Positions 2,732 to 51,235 of a DNA stretch of 64,000 bases are shown here, in pieces. The notes under the pieces were generated by a model. The model was not told the origin of the DNA and searched no databases. It saw nothing but the letters and a program-made list of their open reading frames with translations. How positions within the stretch are numbered: the stretch's first letter is position 1; each line of letters opens with the position of its first letter. This DNA comes from Eubacteriales bacterium (GTDB lineage Bacteria > Bacillota > Clostridia > Oscillospirales > UMGS1783). Both the position numbers and the translations under genes were made by a program. The DNA lies in NCBI GenBank assembly GCA_045541395.1, contig JAZQIZ010000001.1, positions 21,233 to 85,232 on the forward strand, written 5' to 3'.

Positions 2732-2742
2732 TAATACTAAAA

Positions 2743-3174: not shown

Positions 3175-3288
3175 ATAACAGAAATCAAACTGCTGTAATT
3201 ATCATACAATGATCATAAGGTAAACTATTCCGTTTGTCAAATGGTAGACAAAAACTTTGGGATGTGATATATTATTATAGGTGATGCT

Positions 3289-3855: not shown

Positions 3856-3872
3856 TCGCACCCGTTTTTTTT
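3841..3872. terminator. Bidirectional terminator
   Basis: aaaacgggtgc (3841-3851) pairs with gcacccgtttt (3858-3868), followed by a T run. It overlaps both stop codons. Confidence 0.85.
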
Positions 3873-4689: not shown

Positions 4690-5315
4690 TATGCGAAAAT
4701 CTCCTTAACCTTTTCTATAACTGCTTGGGCAAGCTTTGCGTGGTTCTCTTCATCCATATGCACGGCATCTGCCTTACCGGGAGCAGCTACCTGCTGTGCA
4801 TCAATAAAGTAACATCCGTACTGCATTGCAATGGAATTAAAGAAGAACGGGAACATTCTGCTTTCCTCATAGCAGCTTTCGTCAAGTACCCAAAGCGGGC
4901 CCATATCCTTTCTCTCGTAACCAATAACTATAGGTGAGATAACAAGAATGGGAACGTTATTCCCTAGTATCTCTCTTGTTTTGGCTATCAGCATACCAAC
5001 ACCCTGTGCAGACCCCCCTGCGCGGCCGCAAACGTTGACCTTAAGATCGTTTGTGCCAATGCTTATAATAACAAGGTCAAGAGGTGACTGGCTCTTTAAA
5101 CAGGGCTCCAGATATTTAAGACCGTTTGCGCCGGGAGTTAAAACGTCGTCAAACGCGGAAGTCCTGCCGTTTAATCCTTCTTCAATTACTGTATATTCGG
5201 GGAAGGCTGCCTGTAAGCGCCCTGTCCACCTGATATCCTCAGAATATCTTTCGCCCTTGCCGCCAATAAAACCCCATGTATTAGAGTCGCCGAAACATAA
5301 AATTCTTTTTTTCAT
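4689..5315 (-). CDS. SGNH/GDSL hydrolase
   Basis: Block I CFGDSNTWG, block III GTND, C-terminal DAVH. Its stop overlaps the SDR start (TAATG), indicating translational coupling. Confidence 0.8.
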   Translation of the reverse strand: MKKRILCFGDSNTWGFIGGKGERYSEDIRWTGRLQAAFPEYTVIEEGLNGRTSAFDDVLTPGANGLKYLEPCLKSQSPLDLVIISIGTNDLKVNVCGRAGGSAQGVGMLIAKTREILGNNVPILVISPIVIGYERKDMGPLWVLDESCYEESRMFPFFFNSIAMQYGCYFIDAQQVAAPGKADAVHMDEENHAKLAQAVIEKVKEIFA

Positions 5316-5369
5316 ATTTGCCGTCCCTTCCGTAAATTATTGTTTTAAGTATATCACCTATTTTGAATA

Positions 5370-5397
5370 TTGACAATATCAAATTTTGTGCTATAAT
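5370..5397 (+). promoter_or_regulatory. SigmaA-type promoter of the csoR-ATPase operon
   Basis: TTGACA (5370-5375), 16-nt spacer, extended -10 TGcTATAAT (5389-5397). Confidence 0.7.
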
Positions 5398-5402
5398 AAA
5401 AA

Positions 5403-5421
5403 TATACCCTACGGGGGTATA
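5403..5421 (+). promoter_or_regulatory. CsoR-type operator (GC-cored pseudo-palindrome)
   Basis: tataccc-tac-gggggtata lies immediately downstream of the -10. It resembles the TACCC..GGGGGTA operator type bound by Cu-sensing CsoR in Bacillus (recalled from memory). Confidence 0.6.
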
Positions 5422-5437
5422 GTATATGGAGGTAATT

Positions 5438-5710
5438 ATGTGTAACGAATACTCTAAAAACATAGAAACCCGCTTATCCCGTATAGAGGGTCAAATTAAG
5501 GGCATAAAGCAAATGGCTGGTGAGGGCAGGGAGTGTGAGGATATTATAGTTCAGCTTTCCGCTGTAAACTCTGCTATTACAAATGTTGCCCGTCTTATTC
5601 TTGAACACCATATTGAACACTGTGTTGTAGACGGCATTAAGAATTCTGACGAGGCTAAAACTATCGAGAATTTAAAAACCGCTGTTTCTGCTTTTTCTAA
5701 AATGAAGTGA
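5438..5710 (+). CDS. csoR: CsoR/RcnR-family metal-sensing repressor
   Basis: RLSRIEGQIKGIKQM, with C(x24)H(x3)C ligand pattern (RECEDII...LEHHIEHC). GGAGG lies 5 nt before the ATG at 5438; the track start at 5426 lacks an SD. Confidence 0.85.
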   Translation: MCNEYSKNIETRLSRIEGQIKGIKQMAGEGRECEDIIVQLSAVNSAITNVARLILEHHIEHCVVDGIKNSDEAKTIENLKTAVSAFSKMK

Positions 5711-5717
5711 GGTAAAT

Positions 5718-7760: not shown

Positions 7761-7771
7761 TCACATCCTTT

Positions 7772-7817
7772 GGGAGGGTATTCGCTTTTAATTGCGTTTA
7801 TCCTCCTATTTTTTTTG
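7772..7817 (+). terminator. Putative terminator after the ATPase gene
   Basis: ggagggta (7773-7780) pairs with tatcctcc (7799-7806), with an inner cgc/gcg pair, followed by tatttttttt. Confidence 0.55.
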
Positions 7818-7847
7818 CTATATTAATGAAATTTTTTATCTAAAAAC

Positions 7848-7876
7848 TTGCTTTTTTCAAAAAAAATTGTTATTAT
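7848..7876 (+). promoter_or_regulatory. gdhA promoter
   Basis: TTGCTT, 17-nt spacer, TGtTATTAT. Confidence 0.55.
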
Positions 7877-7913
7877 ATAGTGTAAGTTATTAATTTAGTA
7901 AGGAGGCTTACTT

Positions 7914-9269
7914 ATGGCTATTACAAATGAGTATTTGAAAAAGGTTTATGCAGACGTTGTTAAGAGAGATCCTGATCAGGCTGAGTTTCATCAGACTGTA
8001 AAGGAAGTGTTCGAATCTATCGAACCTGTTATTGAAAAACGCCCTGATATCGTTAAGGCCGGCATCGTTGAACGTATGGTTGAGCCCGAACGTACTATCG
8101 TTTTCCGTGTTCCTTGGGTTGATGATAACGGCGTTGTTCAGGTAAACAGAGGCTTCAGAGTTCAGTTTAACTCTGCTATCGGTCCTTATAAGGGCGGTCT
8201 TCGTTTCCATCCCTCCGTTAACCTCTCTATTATGAAGTTCTTAGGCTTTGAACAGACTTTCAAGAACTCTCTTACAACCCTTCCTATGGGCGGTGCTAAG
8301 GGCGGTTCCGACTTTGATCCCAAAGGCAAGTCCGATAACGAAGTTACGCGCTTCTGCCAGAGCTTTATGACTGAGTTACATAAGCACATCGGCGCTAATA
8401 CCGACGTTCCTGCCGGTGATATCGGCGTAGGTGCCCGTGAGATCGGCTATCTCTTCGGCCAGTATAAGCGTCTTCAGAATTCCTTCGAAGGTATTCTTAC
8501 CGGTAAGGGCCTTTCTTACGGCGGCTCTCTTATCCGTCCTGAAGCTACAGGCTATGGCGCTGTTTATTACACCGTAGAAATGTTAAAGACTCTCGGCGAA
8601 GAGATCAAGGGTAAGACTTTTGCTATCTCCGGCTTCGGTAACGTTGCTTGGGGTACTGTTAAGAAGCTTACCGAGCTCGGCGGCAAGGTTGTAACCATCT
8701 CCGGTCCCGACGGCTATATTTATGATGAAGACGGTGTTTGCACCGAAGAAAAGATCAACTTTATGCTCGAAATGCGTGCTTCCTGCCGCGATAAGGTTCA
8801 GGATTATGCTGATAAGTTCGGCGTTCCCTTCTTCCCCGGTCAGAAGCCCTGGGGCGTTAAGGCTGACGTTATTATGCCTTGCGCTACTCAGAACGAAGTT
8901 GGTATGGCTGAAGCTGAAAAGATCGTTGCTAACGGCGTTAAGTATTACGTTGAAGTTTCCAATATGCCTACCACCAACGAAGCTATTGCTTACTTAAAGG
9001 AAAACGGCGTTGTTGTTGCTCCTTCCAAGGCTGTTAACGCAGGCGGCGTTGCTACCTCCGGCCTCGAAATGTCACAGAACTCTATGAGATATTCCTGGAC
9101 TGCCGAAGAAGTTGATGCTAAGCTCCATCAGATCATGAAGAACATCTATGAAGCTTCTTACAATGCAGCAAAGACTTATGGTCAGGAAGGCGATCTTGTT
9201 GCAGGCGCTAACATCGCAGGCTTTATAAAGGTTGCAGATGCTATGCTGGCTCACGGTATTGCATATTAA
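7914..9269 (+). CDS. gdhA: NADP-specific glutamate dehydrogenase
   Basis: 451 aa with GGLRFHPSVNLSIMKFLGFEQTFKNSLTTLPMGGAKGGSDFDPKG and GFGNVAWG. SD AAGGAGG. Confidence 0.95.
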   Translation: MAITNEYLKKVYADVVKRDPDQAEFHQTVKEVFESIEPVIEKRPDIVKAGIVERMVEPERTIVFRVPWVDDNGVVQVNRGFRVQFNSAIGPYKGGLRFHPSVNLSIMKFLGFEQTFKNSLTTLPMGGAKGGSDFDPKGKSDNEVTRFCQSFMTELHKHIGANTDVPAGDIGVGAREIGYLFGQYKRLQNSFEGILTGKGLSYGGSLIRPEATGYGAVYYTVEMLKTLGEEIKGKTFAISGFGNVAWGTVKKLTELGGKVVTISGPDGYIYDEDGVCTEEKINFMLEMRASCRDKVQDYADKFGVPFFPGQKPWGVKADVIMPCATQNEVGMAEAEKIVANGVKYYVEVSNMPTTNEAIAYLKENGVVVAPSKAVNAGGVATSGLEMSQNSMRYSWTAEEVDAKLHQIMKNIYEASYNAAKTYGQEGDLVAGANIAGFIKVADAMLAHGIAY

Positions 9270-41109: not shown

Positions 41110-43302
41110 TTATTTTTCGGTTATCCAAAGAATATCGCTGCCCATATCACCCTTAATTGTCATATCAAAGCCTTCTTCCATAAGGACTTTGCCATTAACG
41201 GTTACGGGTTCAAATCTGCTGTCTTCAGAGGTAAGAATATAATCTCTATCCTCATAAAGACCTCTCAGCTTAATATTTTTGGTTTCGCCTTCGTTGTTAG
41301 TTGGTTTATACACAAACAGGCAGCCCTTAATTTCATTTTCGCTGTCCTTGTCTGCATACTGAATTCCGTCCCAGTTAATTCCGTCGGGGCGGGGAAGTAC
41401 GTGATAAAGATCGGCCTCTCTTACAAGGGGCTTAATTTTTTCGTTATACATAGTGCAGTATCTTGCGTATACGTCTCTGTCAATATCAACGGTCCAGCTG
41501 CTCAGCATAACAGCACCCATCATAATACTTCTCATACCGAAATCAGTGTCGCCTGTGCCGGTTCTGTAAATTGAGCCGTCTTTAAAAGTATCAATATTGC
41601 AGGGGCTCTGAAGCTGTGCGGCCGGAATACAGTAGGAGGAATCATAGAAAGTCATTCTAAGGCTGGTATAGTCAGCAGAGTCATCATTGTTTATAACAGA
41701 TGCTCTTGTAAGAGTTGCAAAGTCCTTCATTGCACCACCGGAACAGCAGCTTTCATAACGGAAACCGGGTACTGTTTCAATTAAGTGGTCTACAAGATCG
41801 TAAAATCCTGTAGCACACCAATATGTAACGTCATAACCGTTTGCATAGTGTCGGTTTGCTCTGTCGGAATAAATTGAAATAGGCTCAAAGTCACTTCTCC
41901 AGGTGGTTGCGCCACTGGATACAAAGAATTCCTTAAGCTCACTCTTTAAAAATTCAACACACTCTTCATTGCCAAGGTCGGCAGATTTGCCGGTGGTTAT
42001 CTGGGTAGGTCCAAACCATTCCTTTTTGCCGTGCCCTTCGTGACTTGTCAGGCCAAAGTCAATATCCTCGTAACTGTCGTGCAAAAGTACGTAAATTGCA
42101 AGAGTAAGGCCTTTTTCCTTGGCAAGGTCGGTAAAGTCTTTTATGGTTTCGCATCTGTAACTGCGTAAAACGTTCAGATATGCAGGCTCTCTTACTTCCC
42201 ATGCCCCCTCTAAGGTCTTCCATGTCCAGGTAATTGTTGGATCGGTAGGATCCTTTGCTTTTTCTGAGGACCACCAACCGTAATCCCACTTAATGGATTG
42301 CAACCCAAGTTCGGCAGCGTCAAGGCCTATTTGCATATCCATCTGAGTAAGGGGCTCCATTTCATTCTCTCTCATACTTTCGGGAGACTTGTAATTAAAG
42401 AACCATCTTTTAAATACATTACCGCCTTCGTCAACGTCTCCATCGTAAACGCCAAAATATGCAGTTGGGATAACAAAAGTGTCACCTTCGGGAATTTTAG
42501 TAGCAAAGGAGCCGTGTTCAGTAATATTTATGGCAAGCTCAACCTCGTTGTTGCCCTTGCCGTATGCTTCAATTTTAGCATCGGGCCATTCAAGGGCTGC
42601 GTAAACACCGCAGTTGGAGTTACTGTCAAGATACATCATAGGAATGTAGCCGTTGGTGTTCCATCCGTTTCCGGGGTTAGTATTTATTCTTACGTTGGTT
42701 TTCTCTTTAAGAACAGTTTTGTATATACCGGTGCCTTCGTAGTGTGTTCCGTTATATAATGTTGCGCCTTCAGCACATCCGCTTTCCTTTTTGAATGTCC
42801 AGGCGGTTGTTTCTTCCGGCATAGAAAGGTACGTGTTAAATAAATTAAGGCTTGTATAGCTTATGTCTTTACCGCTCAAATTCAAAAGTTTACCGGAAAT
42901 CTGAAAAGGCCCGTCACTTTCAGGTGTGTATTCGCATAAAAGATTATATTCAAAGCCCGCATCATCGTTAAAGATTAAAGTAAGCAGATTATCCTCTTCT
43001 ATTGCTTCTTTATATACCCAGTTAAATGACTGCGAAGCTTCTTCTATCTTGTAGCTGTACGGTAAAAACATCTGAGATGCCTCGGCAAACATATTCTTTT
43101 CGCCGGTAATCGTGCCAAGGTAGGTGAGGTAAGGAATATTATCCTTTAATGAAATTTCAAGAATGCTTCCACCGTTTACAAGGGCCCACTTCTCATCAGC
43201 GCGGAATTTTACTTTCTCGCTTTTTTTAATGGGACTCTCTGCGCAGGACACTAATGAAAATAATGTAATTAAAACGAGTAAAATACAAACAAACCTTTTC
43301 AT
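41110..43302 (-). CDS. Lipoprotein glycoside hydrolase, GH36-like (alpha-galactosidase superfamily)
   Basis: Lipobox LFSLVSC. IKWDYGWW resembles the KWD nucleophile block of GH36, and ESCCSGGAMKD resembles its CSGGGxRxD acid/base block. Assignment by eye only. Confidence 0.5.
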   Translation of the reverse strand: MKRFVCILLVLITLFSLVSCAESPIKKSEKVKFRADEKWALVNGGSILEISLKDNIPYLTYLGTITGEKNMFAEASQMFLPYSYKIEEASQSFNWVYKEAIEEDNLLTLIFNDDAGFEYNLLCEYTPESDGPFQISGKLLNLSGKDISYTSLNLFNTYLSMPEETTAWTFKKESGCAEGATLYNGTHYEGTGIYKTVLKEKTNVRINTNPGNGWNTNGYIPMMYLDSNSNCGVYAALEWPDAKIEAYGKGNNEVELAINITEHGSFATKIPEGDTFVIPTAYFGVYDGDVDEGGNVFKRWFFNYKSPESMRENEMEPLTQMDMQIGLDAAELGLQSIKWDYGWWSSEKAKDPTDPTITWTWKTLEGAWEVREPAYLNVLRSYRCETIKDFTDLAKEKGLTLAIYVLLHDSYEDIDFGLTSHEGHGKKEWFGPTQITTGKSADLGNEECVEFLKSELKEFFVSSGATTWRSDFEPISIYSDRANRHYANGYDVTYWCATGFYDLVDHLIETVPGFRYESCCSGGAMKDFATLTRASVINNDDSADYTSLRMTFYDSSYCIPAAQLQSPCNIDTFKDGSIYRTGTGDTDFGMRSIMMGAVMLSSWTVDIDRDVYARYCTMYNEKIKPLVREADLYHVLPRPDGINWDGIQYADKDSENEIKGCLFVYKPTNNEGETKNIKLRGLYEDRDYILTSEDSRFEPVTVNGKVLMEEGFDMTIKGDMGSDILWITEK

Positions 43303-43314
43303 TTTATTCTCCTT

Positions 43315-43725
43315 CTATGTTTTTGTAATGAATTTACTGTTGCAGTTGGGGCAGGTAAACTGTATTTTTCCTTTCCCCCTGGGAAGTCTGATATAGGTTT
43401 TGCAACCTTTGCACTTAACATATTTAACCGTCTTTCGGTTTAACCACATATTCTTATAAAGTCTGATCCGCTTTAAAAGCCTATCTTTGATCTTTGCGTA
43501 AATACATAGCTCCTTGTAACGGGCGTTTGTGTTTTTGGAAAAACATCTGAAAAGATTCCAGGTAAGAAGCGCTATTACAAAAGGGTACAAATACCATAAA
43601 AAATAAGCCCCGATCATCAGTACAAATGCAAGGATCAAAATGAATCTTGAAAGGGCGTCAGACCCGTATCGACCATACATAAATTTTTGAAATTTACGAA
43701 GTAAAAGGTTAAAGAAATTTTTCAT
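43315..43725 (-). CDS. Membrane protein with C-terminal zinc ribbon
   Basis: Two TM segments followed by CKGCKTYIRLPRGKGKIQFTCPNC. Confidence 0.5.
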   Translation of the reverse strand: MKNFFNLLLRKFQKFMYGRYGSDALSRFILILAFVLMIGAYFLWYLYPFVIALLTWNLFRCFSKNTNARYKELCIYAKIKDRLLKRIRLYKNMWLNRKTVKYVKCKGCKTYIRLPRGKGKIQFTCPNCNSKFITKT

Positions 43726-43737
43726 ATAATTACCTGC

Positions 43738-43764
43738 AAAAAAAGGCAGTGAAATCTGCCTTTA
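43738..43764 (-). terminator. Terminator after the AraC gene
   Basis: aaaggcag pairs with ctgccttt. The minus strand is followed by T7. Confidence 0.65.
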
Positions 43765-44580
43765 TTTTTTCTTGATTGTTTGAATGTACTGTTTAGGGGA
43801 TTTACCTACTTCTTTAGAAAAAACTCTGGAGAAATACAGGGGGTCGTTATAGCCGATAAACGTTGCTATATTGCTTACTGTAGTAAGACCTTCATCCATA
43901 AGCTCGCAGGCTTTCTGGATTCTGACGAAAGTAAGATATTCTGAGAAGGATCTTCCGAATTTCTCTTTAAAGCAACGGGAAACGTAATGGAAATTGTAAT
44001 CAAATCTCTTGCTTACGCTTTGTAATGACAGATTAGTGTCATTGTAATGAGTATCTACGTAATTTCTTATTGCATCCATGCTTGTTGCAACGTATTTTTG
44101 CGATTCATTTTTAGGCTGGCCCAGATTTGCCATAGTAAGGAGGATAAGAGATTCAGCCAGTAATTCGGCATTGTTGCCGTCCTGCATCTGATGGCACTGA
44201 TTCCAAATACCAATAAGCTCATCCTTCCCGGATATAACAGGGAAGTCCGGATCAATACCCGCCTTACCTAAAAGCTTAGTCCCTCTTCCTCCAAAGAAGG
44301 TTATGTAAATATACTGGAAATCTTCCATATTTGAAAGATAAAAAGATTTTGTTGGGAATGTAAAAAAGACGTCACCTTTCTTAATATGAAAACTGTTCTG
44401 AATCATATTAAGAGTTGCGCTGCCTGAAGTAACAACATAAAGACCAAAAGCCGAAAGTATTTTATATTCTGTACTTTCGGTAGGGCTGACTTCATTTATG
44501 AAGTTAATAATATTTAGTTTGTCGCCGGATTCGGACATCAAAGGCAATCCGCCTGTGAGTCCTAATCTGAATTCAGCCAT
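43762..44580 (-). CDS. AraC-family transcriptional regulator (cupin sensor plus HTH_18)
   Basis: The C-terminal double HTH ends in FIGYNDPLYFSRVFSKEVGKSPKQY. The ATG at 44580 has AAGGA 9 nt upstream; the TTG at 44622 has none. Confidence 0.85.
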   Translation of the reverse strand: MAEFRLGLTGGLPLMSESGDKLNIINFINEVSPTESTEYKILSAFGLYVVTSGSATLNMIQNSFHIKKGDVFFTFPTKSFYLSNMEDFQYIYITFFGGRGTKLLGKAGIDPDFPVISGKDELIGIWNQCHQMQDGNNAELLAESLILLTMANLGQPKNESQKYVATSMDAIRNYVDTHYNDTNLSLQSVSKRFDYNFHYVSRCFKEKFGRSFSEYLTFVRIQKACELMDEGLTTVSNIATFIGYNDPLYFSRVFSKEVGKSPKQYIQTIKKK

Positions 44581-44663
44581 TGGGCAACATCCTTTCTTGT
44601 AATTTATTATATAACAAACCAATACGGTTTTTCAACAGAAAAAGTAATTTATTTTATAAAATA

Positions 44664-44692
44664 TTGCAAAAATTTTTACATTGTCTTATAAT
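44664..44692 (+). promoter_or_regulatory. Promoter of the pseudouridine synthase gene
   Basis: TTGCAA, 17-nt spacer, TATAAT. It places the track start at 44681 upstream of the transcript start. Confidence 0.65.
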
Positions 44693-44725
44693 ATTGCTTG
44701 TAATCGCCAAAAAGTGAGGATTGAA

Positions 44726-45610
44726 ATGCAGAAAATATCTCTTACAATACCCTCTGACCTTTCGGGGAAAGACGTTAAAACCGTACTTATTAAAAATATG
44801 GGAGTATCTTCAAGTCTTGTTTCAAAAGTAAAACTCAGAGATAATGGCATTCTTTTAAACGGGAAAAGAGTTTTTACAAACGCGATTGTTTGCAAAGGAG
44901 ATTTTCTTGAGTTTGATATTTCAGATTCCGAGCCGGAATTTACAATTAAACAAATTGAATATCCCTTAGATATTGTTTTTGAGGATGATAACCTTATTGT
45001 AATAAATAAACCTGCGCCAATGGCTGTTTATGCTTCCGATAAGGTAGAAGGGCCCTGTACCCTTGCAAATGCACTTGCAGCTTATTATAAAACGGGAGAA
45101 TTTATTCTTCACGTTGTAAACAGGCTTGACAGAGGTACAACAGGCCTTATGATAGTTGCAAAAAACTCCTTCGCTCATGAGAAACTTATAAAAGATCTTC
45201 ATACCGAGAAATTCGTCAGGGAATACCTTGCCGTGGCAGTAGGGACACCCAACCCCACCGAAGGGAAAATAGAACTGCCTATAAGCCGTGAGCCTGATTC
45301 ACTAATTAAAAGAAGAATTGATGAAGAAGGTGCATATGCTTTAACTGAATATAAAACAGTAAGCCAAAACAAAAAATTCTCTCTTATTCGCCTTCGTCTT
45401 AAAACCGGACGTACCCATCAGATACGTCTCCACCTCTCAGCTATAGGGTGTCCTCTTGCAGGTGATTTCCTGTATGGCGCTGAAGATAAAGATCTTATTA
45501 GCCGACCGGCGTTACATTCTCACGAAATATGGTTTACTCATCCCGTAACCAAAGAAGAACTTCATTTCACTGCCCCATTACCTAAAGATATGAAATCTCT
45601 CATAAAATAA
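44726..45610 (+). CDS. RluA-family pseudouridine synthase (S4 domain plus catalytic domain)
   Basis: HVVNRLDRGTTGLMIVAKN (catalytic Asp), GRTHQIRLH. GAGGA SD before the ATG at 44726. Confidence 0.85.
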   Translation: MQKISLTIPSDLSGKDVKTVLIKNMGVSSSLVSKVKLRDNGILLNGKRVFTNAIVCKGDFLEFDISDSEPEFTIKQIEYPLDIVFEDDNLIVINKPAPMAVYASDKVEGPCTLANALAAYYKTGEFILHVVNRLDRGTTGLMIVAKNSFAHEKLIKDLHTEKFVREYLAVAVGTPNPTEGKIELPISREPDSLIKRRIDEEGAYALTEYKTVSQNKKFSLIRLRLKTGRTHQIRLHLSAIGCPLAGDFLYGAEDKDLISRPALHSHEIWFTHPVTKEELHFTAPLPKDMKSLIK

Positions 45611-45640
45611 AGGAACGACATTAGTCGTTCCTTTATTTGT
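45611..45640. terminator. Bidirectional terminator
   Basis: aggaacgac pairs with gtcgttcct, followed by a T run. It also closes the minus-strand CobW operon. Confidence 0.8.
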
Positions 45641-45758
45641 ATATAGCGCTCTTAAAATTGATATTAGTTGCAAAAACTTGTTCAATAGAATCCAGAACTT
45701 CTTTAATTGTAACAGTGTTGGGTTTGTTATTATGAAATAGTTTAATGATATTATCCAT
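45633..45758 (-). CDS. Candidate 41-aa micro-protein, translationally coupled to the upstream GTPase-like gene
   Basis: Hand translation gives MDNIIKLFHNNKPNTVTIKEVLDSIEQVFATNINFKSAIYK*. Its ATG overlaps the upstream TGA (TGATG). Its TAA stop (45633-45635) lies at the edge of the terminator hairpin. Below the 60-aa cutoff of the ORF track. Confidence 0.3.
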   Translation of the reverse strand: MDNIIKLFHNNKPNTVTIKEVLDSIEQVFATNINFKSAIYK

Positions 45759-46699
45759 CAGTCAAATGATGCAACCTCAGGTTCGGGCCTGTCTGCAGGT
45801 TCTATACTAATAGCTGTTAAAACAGGGCCTTTTGTTGCATAAACGGGGGTGTATTTCATTTCAACGGATGCGGTTATTTCCACCCAATCTCTTGTGTTTA
45901 ACTGATTTGCGTTTTCGCACATCAAAAGCAGGCCTGCATATGTAATATCGTCAACACAGCATGTCATAACGTGTCTTCCCACTACCACAGAATCAGGCGG
46001 TAATTTGGGGTTCTTGGCAACAATGCCTGTAAAACGAACCTTTTTCCCGTCGTAGGTATCGGGGCTTTCTGCAAGATCCCTGTAAAAATATGCGTAATCC
46101 CTGTCTGCAATTTCAATTATATCTGCATTAACATCAAAGGGTAGAGGGTCTTCTATAGTATCGTAGTCAACAGTGCCGTCAATATGCTCGTAAGCTATAT
46201 CACAGCCGCGGTTTGCGCCTCTTACTATTTTGTGTATGGGCATCATATCAAATTCAAATGGGGTGCGGTTAATAACAAGAAGTTCACAGCTTTTAAGCTT
46301 GTCATACATCAGGCTACGCATATTTGCGTTATAGTTTATAAAGGTAGTAAAATCTGCAAACATAAATTCCTGATATATTATCCAGTTTTTCGGCATTGCA
46401 CTATAAAGAATTTCTGAAAGCCACATTCCGTTGTATTCAATAATAGTGCGCTTTACGTTATGCTTCTTTTCAAAGTATGAAAGGGTTTTGGCTGTAAGCT
46501 TTTCAGGTTCATCAATAACTTCTACGAAAACGTTGGAGGCCGAAAATGTGCTTGGTTCATATTCCTCAATTCCTTCTTCGCAAAGAATAAGCAGGGTCCT
46601 CTGACCGTCATTAAAACGTTCGTCTTCTAAGGTCTCCTGAATAAACTTTGTTTTGCCTGCCTCTAAAAAGCCTGTAAATAAATAAACCGGTATTTCCAT
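45758..46699 (-). CDS. G3E/CobW-like P-loop domain fused to a DUF1980-like C-terminal domain
   Basis: N-terminus has Walker A TGFLEAGKT but no CxCC motif. C-terminus GKKVRFTGIV...VVVGRHVMTCCVDDITYAGLLL...RDWVEITASV resembles the MxCCxxD domain of DUF1980/TIGR03943 proteins (from memory). GGAG SD. Confidence 0.6.
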   Translation of the reverse strand: MEIPVYLFTGFLEAGKTKFIQETLEDERFNDGQRTLLILCEEGIEEYEPSTFSASNVFVEVIDEPEKLTAKTLSYFEKKHNVKRTIIEYNGMWLSEILYSAMPKNWIIYQEFMFADFTTFINYNANMRSLMYDKLKSCELLVINRTPFEFDMMPIHKIVRGANRGCDIAYEHIDGTVDYDTIEDPLPFDVNADIIEIADRDYAYFYRDLAESPDTYDGKKVRFTGIVAKNPKLPPDSVVVGRHVMTCCVDDITYAGLLLMCENANQLNTRDWVEITASVEMKYTPVYATKGPVLTAISIEPADRPEPEVASFD

Positions 46700-46701
46700 T
46701 G

Positions 46702-47742
46702 TTAAACTCCGAATAATTCCTTTATTGTTTCTTCTTTAATGTTGGCGCCGATAACGCAAATTCTGCCTGTAATATCTGCGCCGCCGTTTCTTACTTCCCA
46801 TTCCCCGGGAACGTAGTCAAAATGAAGCCAACCGTCATTTCCTTCAATAATGCCCTTTGCTCTTAATACAGAGCCGTATTCATCTTTATCAAGCTGTGAC
46901 AGAATTGCTTCAAGACCATCTTTAGTAAATTTCTTGGCAGTTTCAAATCCTACGCTTTGGAATATCTCATCAGCGTGGTGATGATGGTGATGCTCGTGGC
47001 CGCATTCGCATTCCTCATCATGGTGATGATGGTGCTCGTGGCCGCATTCACACTCCTCATCGTGGTGATGGTGATGATGTCCTCCGCAGCAAGGGCAAAT
47101 TTCTTCCTCTTCGTGCTCCTTCTGTAGCTTTTCAAGCTGGAAGGATAAGGTGTTCTGTCTTTCCATAGCCGCCTTTATAATCGTACCGTCAAGGGAATCC
47201 CAATCTGTTGTAACAATTACTGCCTGAGGGTTATGCGCCTTGATCAGATCAACAGCTTCTTTTATCTTTTCGGGCTTTGCATCTGAGGTGCGGCTTAAAA
47301 TAATTGCATTGGCGTGTTCTATTTGGTTATTAAAGAATTCGCCGAAATTCTTCATGTATATTTTGCATTTTTTAACGTCAACAATAGTAGTAAAGCTGTT
47401 AAGCTCAATATTATCGTCAACACCCTTTACTGCCGCAATAACGTCACTAAGCTTTCCAACGCCCGAAGGCTCTATAAGTATTCTGTCGGGGTTAAACTGT
47501 GTAAGCACCTGCTTCAATGCCTTTGAAAAATCACCAACAAGGCTACAGCAAATACAGCCCTGGCTCATTTCGGTTATCTCAATTCCGGCATCCTTCAAAA
47601 AGCCGCCGTCAATACCTATTTCTCCGAATTCATTTTCAATAAGCACAAGCTTTTCGCCTTTGTATGCTTCTTTAATAAGCTTTTTAATAAGGGTGGTTTT
47701 GCCTGCTCCTAAAAAACCTGAGAATATATCAATTTTAGTCAT
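46702..47742 (-). CDS. COG0523 (CobW/ZigA-type) metallochaperone GTPase with His-rich insert
   Basis: Walker A GFLGAGKTT, metal motif GCICCS, ENEFGE, and the insert CPCCGGHHHHHHDEECECGHEHHHHHDEECECGHEHHHHHH before the CobW_C-like domain. Confidence 0.85.
   Translation of the reverse strand: MTKIDIFSGFLGAGKTTLIKKLIKEAYKGEKLVLIENEFGEIGIDGGFLKDAGIEITEMSQGCICCSLVGDFSKALKQVLTQFNPDRILIEPSGVGKLSDVIAAVKGVDDNIELNSFTTIVDVKKCKIYMKNFGEFFNNQIEHANAIILSRTSDAKPEKIKEAVDLIKAHNPQAVIVTTDWDSLDGTIIKAAMERQNTLSFQLEKLQKEHEEEEICPCCGGHHHHHHDEECECGHEHHHHHDEECECGHEHHHHHHADEIFQSVGFETAKKFTKDGLEAILSQLDKDEYGSVLRAKGIIEGNDGWLHFDYVPGEWEVRNGGADITGRICVIGANIKEETIKELFGV
46972..47085 (-). repeat. In-frame 42-bp tandem repeat (~2.5 copies) encoding DEECECGHEHHHHH
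   Basis: Plus-strand units start at 46993 and 47035 (ctcgtggccgcattc...), with ~5 differences in 42 nt. Confidence 0.85.
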
Positions 47743-47886
47743 AAATACACTTCCTTTATTTTTTCTTATACTATTTTAATACTTAATTAGTTTTTTTTCA
47801 AGTGTAAGGGGAAAATGTTTAAATTCTATTGATTTTTTTGTTTTGCGGTAATATAATTCAACTGAAAAAATACAAAGGAGGCTATT

Positions 47887-48651
47887 ATGAATAAAAAGGT
47901 TTTACTTGTTTTGTGTGACGGTATGCGCCCCGATGCTTTGGAACAGCTCAAACATCCATTTTATCTTAAAATGAAGGAAGAGGGAAGCTTTTCCCTGGAT
48001 GCTCAAACTGTATTTCCGTCGGTTACCCTCCCATGCCATATGTCGTTATTCCATAGCGTTACCCCACAAAGACACGGCACAACCACAAATACATATATGC
48101 CGCAGGTTCGCCCTATTGACGGCCTATGCGAACAACTTAAAAAGTATGATAAAACCAGCGCTATGTTTTATAACTGGGAGGAGCTTAAGGACCTTACCCG
48201 CCCGGATTCTATGATACATACCTATTATGCCTCCGGCCATTTTTTAGGTTATGATAAGGCACAGCCTCTTTGCGTAAACAACTGCATTAGCTTCCTTAAA
48301 GAATTCACACCCGATTTTGCATTTTTGTATTTAGGTGAACCCGATGAAAAAGGCCATAATTTCGGCTGGATGGGCAAGGAGTATATGGATTCGCTTAATG
48401 CCTGTTGGGATCACATTAAAAAGGTTGCTGACGACTTAGGTGAGGATTATACAATAATCGTTACTGCAGACCACGGCGGACATGATCGCACACACGGATA
48501 CGATATTCCTGAGGATATGGTAATACCTGTGCTTGTAAGTATCCCCGGGCTTAATATGAAAGACCTTAATATAATGGATATTGCCCCTTCCGTATGCAAT
48601 CTTTTAAATATTCCCGCAAATAAGGAATGGGAAGGCAAGGCCTTTGTATGA
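47887..48651 (+). CDS. Alkaline-phosphatase-superfamily enzyme (type I phosphodiesterase / nucleotide pyrophosphatase-like)
   Basis: LVLCDGMRPD, TVFPSVTLPCHMS (nucleophile region), EPDEKGH, ADHGGHD. SD AAGGAGG. Confidence 0.7.
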   Translation: MNKKVLLVLCDGMRPDALEQLKHPFYLKMKEEGSFSLDAQTVFPSVTLPCHMSLFHSVTPQRHGTTTNTYMPQVRPIDGLCEQLKKYDKTSAMFYNWEELKDLTRPDSMIHTYYASGHFLGYDKAQPLCVNNCISFLKEFTPDFAFLYLGEPDEKGHNFGWMGKEYMDSLNACWDHIKKVADDLGEDYTIIVTADHGGHDRTHGYDIPEDMVIPVLVSIPGLNMKDLNIMDIAPSVCNLLNIPANKEWEGKAFV

Positions 48652-49838
48652 TAAACTATAAAAAATTAGGCTTTCTTTGTTGTCTTGTGTATTTCGTAAG
48701 TTATATAACCCGTATTAATTACGGCGCTGCAATAGCTGAAATAGTTGCTGATATGCAAATAACCAAGGAAATGGCAAGCTATGCTGTAACCGGAAGCTTT
48801 ATAACCTACGGTGTAGGGCAGATATTCAGCGGCATCTTAGGCGACAAATTTAAGCCAAGGCATTTAATTGTAGTTGGACTTTTGGGTACCGCTATTGTAA
48901 ATTTGTCGGTTGTATTCTTGCAAAGTATTGCTGCAATAACCGTAGTATGGTGTTTTAACGGCTTTTTCCAGGCCCTTATGTGGCCGCCCCTTGTTCGAAT
49001 TCAATCTGAAAATATGACTGAGGAACAGTATGCTGTTTCCATAAGAAATGTTTCTGCTGCATCCTCAGTTGCAACCATTGCTATCTATGTTATTGTTCCT
49101 CTTGCAATTTCAATTTCCGGCTGGCGCATAGCGTTTTTATTTGCCGCAGCCGCCGCTTTGGTCACAATCCTTATTTGGTATAAGGGCACTGCCAATATAA
49201 AAGAGGGAAGTGTTGCTTTGCAAAAGGATAACAGCCAAACTTCATCATTAAAGGGAAGCGGCATAATTTTATTCCTTTTGCCTATAATGATAGCCATTGT
49301 TTTGCAAGGCACTTTAAGAGACGGTATTACCACCTGGATGCCTTCTTATATTTCCGAGGTGTTCAATATGGGAACATCCGCTTCCATTCTTACAGGGGCA
49401 GTGTTACCGATATTCAGTATTTTCAGCGTAAGTATTGCAACCTCCCTTGAAAGGAAAATAGGCAATCCTGTAAAAACAGGTGCACTGCTTTTCGGTATAG
49501 GACTATTTGGCTGTGCGGTTATGATCCCTCTTTATAAGGTAAGCGTTTTCATTTGTATTTTTCTTATGGCTCTTATTACCGCCTGTATGCACGGTGTGAA
49601 TATAATGCTTATAGGCCGTATTCCTGCCTATTTCCAAAAATACGGCAAGGTTTCAACAATTTCGGGGATACTTAACTCCTGTACTTATATAGGTTCTGCC
49701 GCCTCAACTTATGGCTTTGCAGTGCTTTCCGATAATTTCGGTTGGAGTATCACTATATGCTGTTGGGCGGTTTTAGGGCTTTTGGGTACTTTACTTTGTA
49801 TTATTTGCATTAAGCACTGGAAAAAAATTTTTCAATAG
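48648..49838 (+). CDS. MFS transporter
   Basis: ~12 TM segments and the G-x-L-G-D-K-F-K-P-R loop motif. The ATG at 48648 overlaps the upstream stop (ATGA). Confidence 0.8.
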   Translation: MINYKKLGFLCCLVYFVSYITRINYGAAIAEIVADMQITKEMASYAVTGSFITYGVGQIFSGILGDKFKPRHLIVVGLLGTAIVNLSVVFLQSIAAITVVWCFNGFFQALMWPPLVRIQSENMTEEQYAVSIRNVSAASSVATIAIYVIVPLAISISGWRIAFLFAAAAALVTILIWYKGTANIKEGSVALQKDNSQTSSLKGSGIILFLLPIMIAIVLQGTLRDGITTWMPSYISEVFNMGTSASILTGAVLPIFSIFSVSIATSLERKIGNPVKTGALLFGIGLFGCAVMIPLYKVSVFICIFLMALITACMHGVNIMLIGRIPAYFQKYGKVSTISGILNSCTYIGSAASTYGFAVLSDNFGWSITICCWAVLGLLGTLLCIICIKHWKKIFQ

Positions 49839-49840
49839 AT

Positions 49841-49868
49841 AAAACGGCGCAACAGCGCCGTTTTTTAT
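49841..49868 (+). terminator. Terminator
   Basis: aaaacggcgc pairs with gcgccgtttt, followed by a T run. Confidence 0.85.
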
Positions 49869-49923
49869 TGATTTTTCTCTTTGAATATTATATTATATCT
49901 GTAATAAAATAAAGGATACTCTT

Positions 49924-50541
49924 ATGAAAACAGTTTATATTATTTTTTCGCATACTGCCTCTAATATGGGTCGGTTTATACGGTTTATTACTAAAAATGA
50001 ATATAACCACGTTTCTCTTTCGTTGAATAAAGCCTCCTATATGCTTTATTCCTTTGCCCGTCATTATGCTAAAGCACCTTTTTACGGCGGTTTTATAGAG
50101 GAATCGCCTTTGCGGTACAAAGGCGCCAAAATAAAAGTTTGTGAAATAGAAGTAACAGAAGAAAGCTATAATATTCTGAATAATGAAATAAACAGTGCCC
50201 TTAAACAAAAGGATAAATATATTTATAATTTAATTTCAGCCATATTCTTTCCCTTTAGAAAAAGAATTTATTTAAATTATTCGTATACCTGCCTTGAATT
50301 TGCAGTGGATACTTTATCTAAGGCTCAAATAAATTCAGTTGAAAATAAGTTTTATTCCGTTGCGGATTTTGAGGATATGTTTAAGGATTATGTAATTTAT
50401 GAGGGCGAATATACTCCTGATGATTCAATAGGCTGGGGAAACGATACATATAATATTAAGGCTTCGTTCGGTTTTCTTTTCAAATCAACTGCTATAAATA
50501 TTTTAAAGCTTTTAGGTCGTTGCTTTCAAAAAAAGCAATAA
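49924..50541 (+). CDS. Hypothetical protein, possibly a permuted papain-like (YiiX/NlpC-P60 superfamily) fold
   Basis: His precedes Cys (YNHVSLSL ... YSYTCLEFAV), as in circularly permuted NlpC/P60 enzymes. Weak, by eye. Confidence 0.35.
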   Translation: MKTVYIIFSHTASNMGRFIRFITKNEYNHVSLSLNKASYMLYSFARHYAKAPFYGGFIEESPLRYKGAKIKVCEIEVTEESYNILNNEINSALKQKDKYIYNLISAIFFPFRKRIYLNYSYTCLEFAVDTLSKAQINSVENKFYSVADFEDMFKDYVIYEGEYTPDDSIGWGNDTYNIKASFGFLFKSTAINILKLLGRCFQKKQ

Positions 50542-50559
50542 GCTTTTAGCTTATTGCTT
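50533..50559. terminator. Bidirectional terminator
   Basis: aagcaataagc pairs with gcttattgctt. It overlaps both stops. Confidence 0.7.
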
Positions 50560-51235
50560 ATAATATGTTTTTCAGTTCGTAAAGGTTTTTTATTTCATAA
50601 TCAATGGTAATATCCCTGTCACAAACATTTGCTTCAGGATTGAACCAGCATTTTTTAATACCTGCGTTTTGCGCACCTTGCATATCGGAAGAAAGCGAAT
50701 CGCCCACAAGAAGTATCTCGTCGGTATTTGTAATATTTGCAGTTTTGATGCAGTGATCAAAAAAACGTTTATCCGGCTTGTTTACTCCGATTTCCTGGGA
50801 AATAAATAAATAATCAAAATACTTATCCAGTCCTGAAACGGAAAGTCTGCTATGTTGAGTGGAGGATATGCCGTTAGTAACAACACAAAGGCAGTATTTA
50901 TCCTTTAAATATTCAAGAATATCTATACAGCCTTCCACCATAACGTGCTGTAGGCTAAGGTTATCGTTATACATAGTATTAAAAAGGGGAATATCTACCT
51001 CCTTTTTTAAAATGCTGAAAAAATCCTCGAACCTTTTAATTCTCAATTGCGGCAGAGTAACCTCTTTTTTTTCGAGCTTTTTCCAGTAACACATATTAAT
51101 TTTTGAGTATAACGGATATACGTTTTCTTCGCGTTTAACACCAAAATGGTCCAACGTTTTATTAAGCGCGGCCTCTGCGCATTTTTCAAAATCCAAAAGT
51201 GTGCCGTCTATATCAAGAAAAATATATTTATACAT
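50558..51235 (-). CDS. HAD-family hydrolase (YjjG-like nucleotidase subfamily IA)
   Basis: FLDIDGTLLDF, VVTNG, VGDSLSSD. Confidence 0.8.
   Translation of the reverse strand: MYKYIFLDIDGTLLDFEKCAEAALNKTLDHFGVKREENVYPLYSKINMCYWKKLEKKEVTLPQLRIKRFEDFFSILKKEVDIPLFNTMYNDNLSLQHVMVEGCIDILEYLKDKYCLCVVTNGISSTQHSRLSVSGLDKYFDYLFISQEIGVNKPDKRFFDHCIKTANITNTDEILLVGDSLSSDMQGAQNAGIKKCWFNPEANVCDRDITIDYEIKNLYELKNIL

Follow-up and report, generated by a model that had tools for sequence, protein, structure and literature searches.

A COG0523 protein and a CxCC-less G3E paralogue fused to a DUF1980-like domain form an obligate gene pair in Oscillospirales: a possible bipartite metallochaperone

Two adjacent genes on the minus strand of the 64-kb stretch of DNA analyzed here (the window) form an obligate module, in which a COG0523 protein and putative metallochaperone (gene 1) is followed by a G3E paralogue without the CxCC metal motif, fused to a DUF1980-like domain (gene 2). 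The core of an earlier note on this DNA, which had read the locus as a tandem G3E operon of this composition, is thus supported. Clostridia of the gut and rumen very commonly carry the pair, which is uncharacterized and a variant of the known COG0523/G3E chaperones. COG0523 proteins are the least understood of the nucleotide-dependent metallochaperones: few of their clients are known, and the question of a monomeric or dimeric active form is unsettled. We propose, with about even confidence, that the pair is a bipartite cytosolic metallochaperone or metal buffer working as a complex, Zn(II) being the most likely metal.

Results

Organization and Regulation of the Locus

The coordinates and minus-strand orientation of both open reading frames, the 2-nt gap between the gene 1 stop codon and the gene 2 ATG, and the 144-bp divergent region upstream of gene 1 (47743..47886) are all as the earlier note described them (Table 1).

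Table 1. Features of the gene 1–gene 2 locus (positions in the window).
Feature	Coordinates	Strand	Description or basis
Gene 1	46702..47742	-	ORF, 346 aa; canonical COG0523 G3E GTPase, putative metallochaperone
Gene 1 Walker A / G1, GFLGAGKTT, residues 9–17	47692..47718	-	Sequence; invariant in family
Gene 1 CxCC high-affinity metal site, C63-I-C-C66	47545..47556	-	Sequence
Gene 1 His/Cys/Glu-rich insert, 46 aa, about residues 211–257	46972..47112	-	G-domain/CTD linker
Gene 1 CTD RxKG, R294-A-K-G297, "arginine finger"	46852..46863	-	Sequence, family alignment
Gene 2	45758..46699	-	ORF, 313 aa
Gene 2 N-terminal G3E-like NTPase domain, residues 1–185	46145..46699	-	Profile, Foldseek
Gene 2 DUF1980_C domain, residues 186–313	45761..46144	-	PF21537, TIGR03943, AlphaFold2, Foldseek
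Gene 2 M245-T-C247-C248-V-D-D251 motif	45947..45967	-	Alignment, secondary-structure prediction
Promoter-like site, two-gene operon	47773..47801	-	TTGAAA, 17-nt spacer, TAAAAT
Terminator hairpin	45609..45634	-	AAAGGAACGAC-TAAT-GTCGTTCCTTT then AUUUUAU

The promoter-like site, of the sigma-70 type, lies about 30 nt 5' of the gene 1 ATG and agrees with the consensus in 10 of 12 positions; it is a candidate promoter by this match, which does not in itself prove function. The terminator hairpin, common to gene 2 and the convergent pseudouridine synthase gene, has a folding energy of −20.7 kcal/mol (z = −7.35), and none of 200 shuffled sequences folded equally well. The locus is best explained as an independent operon of two genes, bounded by a promoter and a terminator of its own.

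In agreement with the earlier note, no Zur-like palindrome was found, either in the window or in 66 related upstream regions. No Zur box with at most four mismatches was found near the pair in the window and 1.17 Mb of related loci, the scan motif being the Firmicute 9-1-9 palindrome AAATCGTAATNATTACGATTT, which is of the Bacillus type and may not be the one used in Oscillospirales. The only elements enriched upstream of gene 1 in the k-mer analysis across 66 related loci were TTGACA, TGnTATAAT, and the ribosome-binding site, and neither this analysis nor the palindrome scans, both covering 67 upstream regions, yielded a shared palindrome or operator before the pair. The Rfam scan of positions 43000..51000 for riboswitches and RNA leaders gave only sub-threshold matches, judged to be due to chance, and no NiCo or cobalamin riboswitch at the pair. 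As Zur box, shared operator, and riboswitch are all missing, zinc-responsive regulation is unsupported for this family; the promoter looks constitutive, and we infer that the pair is expressed constitutively.

Gene 1

Gene 1 proved to be the canonical, His-rich COG0523 protein that it had been taken for, with significant matches to the Pfam domains cobW (PF02492; E = 2.6e-37, 128.6 bits at a cut-off of 20.7) and CobW_C (8.2e-9) and to YjiA (2.3e-19), and with the Walker A, metal-binding, and RxKG motifs and the insert listed in Table 1. The motif defining COG0523, N(G/S)C-phi-CC, is situated between G2 and G3 (PMC11672702); in the window it reads S-Q-G-C-I-C-C (GCICCS), and CxCC is kept in all 68 members of the gene 1 family. 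Arg294, Lys296, and Gly297 of the RxKG motif, whose arginine-finger function has been demonstrated for ZigA and MigC (PMC13001444), are likewise invariant in 68 out of 68 members. The densest 40-aa stretch contains 12–26 histidines in every family member, CxC motifs occur in 59 of the 68 inserts, and this His/Cys/acidic insert is most likely a metal reservoir.

The G4 position has the form S-(R/H)-T-x in place of the canonical guanine-specificity motif (N/T)KxD: the lysine is replaced by arginine or histidine in all 68 members, and the aspartate is present in 32. The variant G4 is a trait of the gene 1 subfamily, which does not exclude membership in the COG0523 superfamily. The scores of gene 1 are below the equivalog cut-offs for CobW (90.2 vs. 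332 bits), ZigA (73.2 vs. 600 bits), YjiA/PRK11537 (84.8 vs. 361 bits), and the CobW-related selenoprotein (87.6 vs. 180 bits). Judged by its sequence, gene 1 is a full COG0523 member with every hallmark present, outside all named equivalogs, and putatively a metallochaperone.

N-Terminal Domain of Gene 2

As a single sequence, gene 2 matches Pfam cobW weakly (19.7 bits, just under the 20.7-bit cut-off), while its homologue from Vescimonas passes this cut-off with 35.5 bits. The assignment of gene 2 as a G3E paralogue, made in the earlier note, is supported by the match of the family profile to YjiA (E = 5e-4, residues 3–181) and by the Foldseek search with the N-terminal domain, which returned YjiA (4e-6) and also HypB and UreG.

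Walker A, as previously noted, is retained, with the P-loop of gene 2 at residue 10, and is present in 96 of the 101 full-length representatives at 50% identity; ExxG, the Walker B Glu, and the switch II Gly are also kept, and these nucleotide-binding motifs are invariant or nearly so across the family down to 31% identity. The CxCC motif is indeed absent: its loop corresponds to a seven-residue deletion relative to YjiA, and none of the 101 representatives has it. However, the segment "LILCEEG," suggested in its place, is not its counterpart, since "CEEG" aligns with "NEFG" of gene 1, that is, with the ExxG motif. The equivalent of the metal ligand E37 is missing as well, and G4 has the form N-R-x-x, without the aspartate. 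No match to CobW_C or RxKG was found in gene 2, whose C-terminal half is DUF1980_C. Lacking both CxCC and CobW_C, gene 2 is thus a G3E paralogue rather than a COG0523 member in the strict sense. The term "degenerate," applied to it in the earlier note, is misleading given the conserved nucleotide-binding motifs. This pattern points to selection on gene 2 as an NTP-binding protein, apparently an ancient G-domain paralogue in which the requirements for nucleotide binding and probably hydrolysis have been retained.

C-Terminal Domain of Gene 2

The C-terminal part of gene 2 was correctly recognized as DUF1980-like: residues 181–306 match PF21537 (DUF1980_C; 5.4e-23, 81.6 bits at a cut-off of 25.9) and TIGR03943 (94.9 bits at a cut-off of 88.8), in the latter case covering only positions 95–218 of the 221 in the profile. 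No match to PF09323, the N-terminal transmembrane domain with two to three helices, was found in gene 2, and its maximum 19-aa hydropathy is 1.27 vs. 1.6–2.5 for the transmembrane segments of classical DUF1980 proteins. This agrees with the earlier description of a soluble CC-motif domain fused to a GTPase-like module, and gene 2 is predicted to be cytosolic, given the absence of a transmembrane segment and the position of the P-loop.

The domain is predicted to fold as a helix followed by a five-stranded OB-fold (AlphaFold2, pLDDT 94.1). Foldseek against PDB returned generic OB-folds only (TM-score 0.4–0.5, identity 9–20%), the closest of them nucleic-acid-binding, and no sequence match to a solved structure was found. 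The M-x-C-C-x-x-D motif, common to gene 2 and classical DUF1980 proteins according to the alignment, is predicted to occupy the end of strand beta2 and the beta2–beta3 loop, on the usual ligand-binding face of OB-folds. Its M, C, C, and D are invariant among 74 gene 2 homologues, and CCxxD is found in 85 of the 101 full-length representatives. The best explanation for these similarities is that the domain derives from the DUF1980 subunit (ScfB/YcgQ) that accompanies ArsP_1-type permeases.

Conservation of the Pair

In the 76 genome loci that could be tested, gene 2 is always immediately preceded by gene 1, most of the gaps being between −11 and +32 nt; conversely, in the search from gene 1, gene 2 adjoins it in all 61 testable metagenome loci. 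The co-occurrence that the earlier note proposed to check thus holds from either gene. The gene order is swapped in three of the 61 loci; these had appeared to be exceptions to the pairing and were rejected as such, since the pair is present. At 32–39% identity, the pair is kept in five out of six loci. Gene 1 and gene 2 therefore form an obligate module, from which one lineage (L090–L092) deviates, as no gene 1 occurs there within 8 kb of gene 2. The gene 2 family yields at least 8000 clusters when grouped at 90% identity and 311 when grouped at 50% (E ≤ 1e-30), and the pair occurs in at least 591 species, mostly Oscillospirales.

The neighbors in the window are those named in the earlier note, a divergent gene of the Phosphodiest family (alkaline-phosphatase, AP, superfamily; 47887..48651) across the 144 bp, and an MFS transporter gene. 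A phmmer search (E ≤ 1e-5) of 80 related genome loci detected neither of the two. All-against-all clustering identified no conserved neighbor besides gene 1, the remaining clusters being antisense artifacts and an ABC ATPase in 20 of the 80 loci; the annotated Vescimonas locus and other related loci have unrelated neighbors. In the same clustering, genes for hydrogenase, urease, CODH, cobalamin, or Ni/Co transport were not conserved near the pair, and a search for ArsP_1 permeases was negative for the window and for the 80 related loci of about 17 kb.

Homologues of gene 1 and gene 2 are mostly unnamed in databases or called "hypothetical protein" or "GTP-binding protein." The literature searched contained no description of the pair, as the earlier note had presumed, no mention of PF21537 or DUF1980_C, and no biochemical study of DUF1980/TIGR03943/COG3689/YcgQ.

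Classical DUF1980 Systems

At the classical DUF1980 loci examined, an adjacent gene for an ArsP_1 permease (PF03773, formerly DUF318) is always present, and the OB domain is predicted to be extracytoplasmic by the positive-inside-rule analysis, both in line with the earlier note. Classical DUF1980 proteins also have a cytoplasmic CxC..H loop, resembling the CxCGH-rich insert of gene 1; one of them has a weak tRNA_anti-like match. In the permeases there is a P-x-C-(E/D)-C motif of a kind that fits thiophilic metals.

In Bacilli, these systems are linked to COG0523 and Zur. A cluster in Pseudalkalibacillus consists of COG0523, FolE2-remnant, permease, and TIGR03943 genes with four Zur boxes at two mismatches, and in Priestia pBM400, a Zur box precedes permease 1; in the scan, the classical loci with boxes at two mismatches were L096 and L082. 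One classical locus of Priestia is situated inside a copper and heavy-metal island. In Bacillus anthracis, the ArsP_1 permease gene BAS1632 and yciC are arranged divergently, and their shared region is bound by purified Zur in EMSA (PMC6336718). Bacillus subtilis ycgQR has been reported to be controlled by an ECF sigma factor, not Zur, and a virulence phenotype in group A Streptococcus (GAS) has been reported for ScfAB (PMC5584981).

A direct connection to G3E proteins is seen in Clostridium butyricum, where the permease is a fusion of a cobW domain without CxCC and ArsP_1, adjoining a TIGR03943 protein. The G3E module aligns with residues 1–185 of gene 2 with the hhalign probability of 97.7%; we rejected a specifically closer relationship to gene 2 than to gene 1, as the module is equidistant from both (68.3 vs. 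64.8 bits). Such fusions are confined to eight protein clusters and thus lend support as a narrow case without amounting to a general rule.

Discussion

In the proposed bipartite chaperone or buffer, a thiophilic divalent metal would pass between the CxCC and His-rich sites of gene 1 and the Cys-Cys site of gene 2 under the control of the nucleotide state, and the OB-fold of gene 2 would be the module that docks on, or hands the metal over to, a client or membrane partner. The proposal draws on the domain architecture, the motif conservation in both proteins, the obligate pairing, and the links of classical DUF1980 systems to G3E proteins and Zur; that the two proteins form a complex, which way the metal moves, and which metal it is are inferred. 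Gene 2 would have traded the whole metal site of the G-domain, together with CobW_C/RxKG, for the M-x-C-C-x-x-D OB-fold domain. Zn(II) seems the most likely metal because of the analogy with Bacilli and the general preference for Zn(II) reported for COG0523 proteins with CxCC. Against the proposal count the lack of a Zur box, shared operator, or riboswitch, the Priestia locus in the heavy-metal island, the ECF control reported for ycgQR, and the lineage without a nearby gene 1. With its predicted place outside the cytoplasm, the classical OB domain may also have a role that does not extend to the cytosolic gene 2. A further counterpoint is that docking of the YjiA CTD appears to block G-domain dimerization of the HypB/UreG style, and COG0523 proteins may act as monomers (PMC11672702).

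A broader proposal, which we regard as possible rather than probable, is that the pair represents a new heteromeric class of G3E metallochaperones, with a complete COG0523 subunit in obligate coupling to a paralogue that has no metal site and whose Cys-Cys OB-fold domain came into the cytosol from the portion of ScfB/YcgQ outside the cytoplasm; by extension, ScfAB/YcgQR would be a system of thiophilic-metal (zinc) acquisition handing the metal to COG0523 proteins. Either way, the pair is a natural two-subunit system, with the metal site, the arginine finger, and a predicted additional metal-binding OB-fold split between paralogues, which makes questions of mechanism, such as who activates whom and by what route the metal moves, directly testable. 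The fusion in gene 2 serves as a Rosetta stone tying the DUF1980/ArsP_1 "two-component permease" (ScfAB) to G3E chaperones and, taken together with the Zur boxes and the B. anthracis EMSA data, suggests zinc acquisition as a testable function of ScfAB.

The same two-subunit chaperone could handle Ni(II), Co(II), or another thiophilic metal for a Ni/Co enzyme of these anaerobes, which we consider somewhat unlikely. The His-rich insert of gene 1 would be just as suitable for Ni(II) or Co(II), and its dense His and acidic residues resemble the His stretches of the nickel chaperone HypB (discussed in PMC2770081); the lack of a Zur box, the constitutive-looking promoter, and the classical locus within the heavy-metal island are also consistent with this metal assignment. 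However, genes of nickel and cobalt metabolism are not conserved nearby, the corresponding riboswitches are absent, gene 1 scores far under the CobW equivalog cut-off, and Zur is the sole regulatory evidence for classical DUF1980 systems. Moreover, HDHCGCEH repeats like those of gene 1 are found in the same window on an ATPase that we take, by its signatures, to be of the Zn/Cd type.

Alternatively, gene 2 might be a soluble, NTP-driven counterpart of ScfB that associates with a permease, of the ArsP_1 type or another, whose gene lies elsewhere in the genome, the pair being the cytoplasmic part of an uptake or efflux system. The usual partnership of DUF1980_C with ArsP_1 permeases, the C. butyricum fusion, and the thiophilic-metal motif of the permeases argue for this arrangement, but the absence of an ArsP_1 gene from the window and the related loci, the predicted location of the classical OB domain outside the membrane vs. 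the cytosolic gene 2, and the restriction of the G3E–permease fusion to eight clusters make it unlikely.

Still less does the evidence favor gene 2 being a decaying or dead pseudo-GTPase acting as a passive scaffold, or its OB-fold binding tRNA or ssDNA instead of metal, both of which we rate as very improbable. The former could explain the loss of CxCC, RxKG, and the G4 aspartate and the sub-threshold cobW score, but the conservation of the nucleotide-binding motifs across the deep family argues against decay. The latter would fit the nearest solved folds and the tRNA_anti-like match of a classical protein, but the structural matches are generic, the homologous classical domain is predicted to be extracytoplasmic, and conservation falls on M, C, C, and D rather than on the aromatic and basic residues typical of nucleic-acid binding. 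Finally, the suggestion of the earlier note that the divergent AP-superfamily enzyme is a metallation client of the pair relies on its adjacency in the window and the use of Zn by Phosphodiest/AP enzymes, but with AP and MFS genes missing from 80 out of 80 related loci and gene 1 the sole conserved neighbor, it is unsupported, and we give it hardly any credence.

Compared with known systems, gene 1 shares the G3E P-loop, N-S-G-C-I-C-C, the variable linker, and CobW_C/RxKG with COG0523 proteins such as YjiA, ZigA, MigC, ZagA/YciC, CobW, and ZNG1, and, like MigC, has no Zur box. It differs from them in its non-canonical G4 and the constantly adjacent CxCC-less paralogue, and we know of no characterized COG0523 protein with an obligate partner of this kind. 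The C-terminal 128 residues of gene 2 are homologous to DUF1980_C of ScfB, YcgQ, and SMU.747, the common core comprising the D-x-D-Y helix, Y-x-G-K, R-x-x-M-x-C-C-x-x-D, W-V, and a proline; unlike these proteins, gene 2 lacks the membrane-spanning N-terminal domain, carries a fused P-loop NTPase, and is predicted to be cytosolic. Their partners are the ArsP_1 permeases ScfA, YcgR, and SMU.746, respectively, whereas gene 2 has no adjacent permease.

HypB and UreG are G3E nickel insertases, functioning as nucleotide-dependent dimers with accessory proteins that bind metal, such as HypA, SlyD, and UreE. They have the same fold as both G-domains of the pair according to Foldseek, many HypB proteins have a His-rich reservoir, as does gene 1, and the pair follows the same logic of a GTPase plus a separate metal-binding module. 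However, HypB and UreG are homodimers, whereas gene 1 and gene 2 would form a paralogous hetero-pair; their accessory module is a separate protein, whereas here the OB-fold is fused to one of the subunits; and the pair is not linked to hydrogenase or urease genes. In the C. butyricum fusion, the G3E domain resides on the permease and not on the OB domain, a canonical COG0523 gene is not adjacent, and the distribution is very narrow, but the theme is that of gene 2, namely the physical union of a G3E domain lacking CxCC with the DUF1980/permease system.

Operon organization and distribution

Gene 1, encoding a His-rich COG0523 G3E GTPase, and gene 2, encoding its CxCC-less paralogue fused to a DUF1980_C domain, were both recovered on the minus strand at exactly the coordinates of the earlier note (see the table of features). 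The gene 1 stop codon, preceded by a GGA-rich stretch within the 3′ end of the gene, is separated by two nucleotides from the gene 2 ATG, and 144 bp lie between gene 1 and its divergent neighbour. Given this 2-nt gap, the promoter-like site, and the hairpin closing the unit against a convergent gene for an RluA-type pseudouridine synthase, the pair is a compact two-gene operon.

Features of the operon, its surroundings, and related loci
Feature	Sequence	Coordinates	Strand	Details
Gene 1	window	46702..47742	-	346 aa; ORF, sequence reading
Gene 2	window	45758..46699	-	313 aa; ORF, sequence reading
Promoter-like site	window	47801..47773	-	TTGAAA, 17 nt, TAAAAT; consensus match
Strong hairpin, then U-run	window	45634..45609	-	-20.7 kcal/mol, z = -7.35
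Phosphodiest/AP-superfamily gene and MFS transporter gene	window	47887..49838	+	254 aa (AP-superfamily); 25-nt overlap
ORF downstream of the MFS gene	window	49924..50541	+	205 aa
CsoR/RcnR-family metal-sensing repressor, directly followed by P1B-type ATPase	window	5426..7760	+	repressor PF02583, 5e-26; ATPase 680 aa
Swapped-order pair (gene 2 first)	L161; L164; L175	2520..4538; 2477..4712; 133..2000
WYL-domain protein and D12-class DNA methyltransferase upstream of gene 2 homologue P0222	L090, L091, L092	5934..8933
CxCC-less cobW–ArsP_1 fusion, annotated “permease”	L083; L093 (Clostridium butyricum megaplasmids)	3904..5517; 1904..3517		537 aa
COG0523, apparent FolE2 remnant, ArsP_1 permease, TIGR03943, NAD(P)-binding protein	L096 (Pseudalkalibacillus hwajinpoensis plasmid)	2565..6477
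Two tandem permease + TIGR03943 pairs	L082 (Priestia megaterium pBM400)	4271..8641

The full-length gene 2 fusion is abundant, being matched by at least 8000 clusters at 90% identity, of which the best 120 are all full-length, and by 311 clusters at 50% identity with E ≤ 1e-30, the lowest identity being about 31%. The fusion occurs in at least 591 species-level genomes, mostly gut and rumen Oscillospirales (Acutalibacteraceae, Oscillospiraceae, Ruminococcaceae). Carriers that can be cultivated include Vescimonas fastidiosa and Subdoligranulum variabile.

The pairing described in the earlier note is borne out by co-occurrence across genomes: of 80 genome loci, 76 have a gene 1 orthologue immediately upstream of gene 2 on the same strand, with gaps mostly from −11 to +32 nt, and the remaining four are truncated within 600 bp. 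The arrangement is kept in five out of six tested loci of divergent gene 2 members (32–39% identity). The reverse test took gene 1 of metagenome contigs as its starting point and found gene 2 adjacent in all 61 testable loci, downstream in 58 and immediately upstream in three. This swapped-order sub-lineage carries the motifs F-T-C-C-A-A-D and F-N-R-V-D, the latter retaining the Asp of the G4 guanine-specificity motif; TrkA/TrkH potassium-uptake genes come after its pair. One lineage (L090–L092) has no gene 1 within 8 kb of gene 2, and there the gene 2 motif is M-T-C-N, as opposed to M-T-C-C elsewhere. Gene 1 is the more conserved partner, with a median identity to the window protein of 62.9% vs. 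55.7% for gene 2.

Gene 1 is a canonical COG0523 protein

The gene 1 product matches the Pfam domains cobW (2.6e-37) and CobW_C (8.2e-9), and its closest solved relative is Escherichia coli YjiA (2.3e-19). Its scores against the equivalogs CobW, ZigA, YjiA, and CobW-related selenoprotein stay far under their curated cut-offs, which places it outside all these named subfamilies. A review and a 2026 preprint from the Giedroc laboratory (PMC11672702, PMC13001444) define COG0523, and the self-activating mechanism of its GTPase, by an N(G/S)CφCC motif and an RxKG “arginine finger.” Both are retained here: all 68 orthologues taken from related loci have CxCC, and RxKG of the C-terminal domain (CTD) is invariant in them (68/68). 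All of them also carry the His/Cys/acidic insert, whose densest 40 residues contain 12–26 His and which includes CxC in 59 out of 68. The G4 motif reads S-(R/H)-T-x instead of the expected (N/T)KxD; its Lys is found in none of the 68 proteins and the guanine-specifying Asp in only 32.

Two further ORFs over gene 1, at 46950..47135 (−) and 47240..47779 (+), were rejected as artefacts of its His-codon CAT/CAC runs. Such ORFs can be long and arise in alternative reading frames as well as antisense to the gene (one translation reads ITIITTM), and in the window and related loci they mimic “conserved neighbours” in all-against-all clustering.

Gene 2 combines a G3E domain without a metal site with a predicted cytosolic OB-fold

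The N-terminal 185 residues of gene 2 form a true G3E domain according to profile and model comparison. The single-sequence Pfam cobW score is marginal, the family profile (residues 3–181) matches, at E = 5e-4, the entire YjiA G-domain, and the AlphaFold2 model (pLDDT 91.3) resembles YjiA, HypB, and UreG. The earlier note had placed “CEEG” at the CxCC position; in the alignments it instead lies opposite “NEFG” of gene 1, i.e., in the ExxG motif, and seven residues, those of the CxCC loop, are cleanly deleted. Since, moreover, the position of the YjiA metal ligand E37 is occupied by a hydrophobic residue, gene 2 has, as judged from the alignment, lost the whole G-domain metal site, together with the CobW_C/RxKG domain. 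The nucleotide motifs persist: Walker A, ExxG, Walker B Glu, and switch II Gly do not vary in 74 homologues. Of 101 full-length representatives (50% identity), 96 keep Walker A, 85 keep CCxxD, and none has CxCC. The G4 motif is N-R-x-x, devoid of Asp; the non-canonical G4 motifs of the two proteins would predict relaxed base specificity. Gene 2 is thereby a conserved, probably nucleotide-binding protein, as opposed to a decaying copy.

The resemblance of its C-terminus to DUF1980, proposed from the sequence, was confirmed by profile searches: the C-terminal 128 residues match PF21537 (DUF1980_C) at 5.4e-23, and the TIGR03943 score is 94.9 against the curated cut-off of 88.8 bits, with coverage limited to the C-terminal part of the profile. 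Modelled alone (pLDDT 94.1), the domain starts with a helix and continues as a five-stranded barrel, similar to the OB-folds of AspRS/AsnRS N-terminal domains, RPA32, CST subunits, and OBodies (E about 5e-4, TM-score 0.4–0.5). In the predicted secondary structure M245 ends strand β2, and C247, C248, and D251 belong to the β2–β3 loop, which we infer to sit on the usual ligand-binding face of the OB-fold. Hydropathy analysis found no hydrophobic segment in gene 2, and hence the predicted protein must be cytosolic.

Classical DUF1980 systems are linked to G3E proteins and zinc

The classical, biochemically uncharacterised DUF1980 proteins ScfB/YcgQ/SMU.747 (TIGR03943) partner the ArsP_1 permeases ScfA/YcgR/SMU.746; ScfAB-type systems are needed for group A streptococcal soft-tissue infection (PMC5584981, PMC12173739). 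We found four links from these systems to G3E proteins and zinc.

First, in two complete genomes of C. butyricum a CxCC-less cobW domain (residues 7–179, E = 1e-14) is fused to ArsP_1, and a TIGR03943 gene follows. This G-domain matches the gene 2 N-domain with an hhalign probability of 97.7% and is equally distant from both genes of the pair; the fusion is narrowly distributed (eight clusters). In draft assemblies its G3E part has an entry of its own or is given as a partial protein (about 204–238 aa). Second, the Pseudalkalibacillus cluster includes a canonical COG0523 protein (GCICC, NKMD, LRGKG) and is punctuated by four Bacillus-type Zur boxes with two mismatches each; its unannotated stretch, whose translation resembles C-terminal FolE2, is probably a pseudogene. 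Third, the first pBM400 pair is preceded, at a distance of 157 nt, by a Zur box with two mismatches. Both pairs belong to a copper/heavy-metal island, between CopC/YcnI genes and HMA2 and P-type ATPase genes; the second DUF1980 protein has H-C in place of the C-C of the others and carries a HDHNCDCGCGHSHE loop. Fourth, in B. anthracis the genes for the ArsP_1 permease BAS1632 and yciC are divergent, and their common Zur-box region is bound by purified Zur (PMC6336718).

Hydropathy and the positive-inside rule predict for classical DUF1980 proteins a cytoplasmic N-terminus, three TM helices, a cytoplasmic K/R-rich TM2–TM3 loop bearing CxC..H motifs, and an acidic OB domain outside the cell, in agreement with the extracytoplasmic location assumed previously. 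The OB domain of gene 2, in contrast, is predicted to be cytosolic. The loop motif resembles both the CxCGH-rich insert of gene 1 and the N-terminus of a P-type ATPase encoded in the window.

Neighbouring genes and regulation

Clustering of all neighbours in the related loci revealed no conserved neighbour besides gene 1. The adjacent AP-superfamily enzyme, suggested in the earlier note as a metallation client, and the MFS transporter are absent from all 80 related loci, and hence this suggestion lacks comparative support. Judged by conservation, neither gene is related to the G3E pair; the two probably make up a separate operon for organophosphate uptake or hydrolysis, the transporter showing weak PgtP/UhpC/GlpT-like similarity. 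The ORF downstream of them has no Pfam match at E ≤ 0.001.

No credible Rfam family match was found at the locus, and the only elements enriched upstream of gene 1 in 67 loci are TTGACA, TGnTATAAT, and the RBS. The Firmicute Zur box is absent across 1.17 Mb of related sequence, in line with the failure to see a Zur-box-like palindrome at first reading. From this we infer that the pair is probably expressed constitutively.

Discussion

The best-supported interpretation is that the two proteins would be the subunits of a cytosolic metallochaperone or metal buffer. Gene 1 would supply the arginine finger, the CxCC site of high affinity, and, with its insert, a large reservoir. Gene 2 would add another G-domain that binds nucleotide, and an OB-fold with a Cys-Cys pair, which may accept, donate, or present the metal. 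The analogy with HypB and UreG makes heterodimerisation through the G-domains attractive; the CTD of YjiA seems to block this dimer mode (PMC11672702).

The metal is most likely Zn(II), given the analogy with the Zur-linked classical systems and the Zn preference of non-CobW COG0523 proteins reported in the title of PMC7895991. Ni or Co is possible, and the missing Zur box weakens the case for zinc in the gene 1/gene 2 family.

The architecture is already in databases under generic annotation, in RefSeq as “CobW family GTP-binding protein” and “GTP-binding protein.” The pairing had been considered uncharacterised, and our search of a literature library likewise found no mention of the fusion, the pairing, or the domain. 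We regard the pair as a variant COG0523 system, in which the paralogue is obligate and equipped differently; it also provides a lead toward the function of ScfAB/YcgQR.

Elsewhere in the window, the P1B-type ATPase encoded next to the CsoR/RcnR-family repressor has repeated HDHCGCEHEHHEHH units in place of an N-terminal HMA domain, and these repeats resemble the CxCGH-rich insert of gene 1. It carries CPC in TM6 and ADVG...NSLR near the C-terminus, which we take to suggest a Zn/Cd-type pump.
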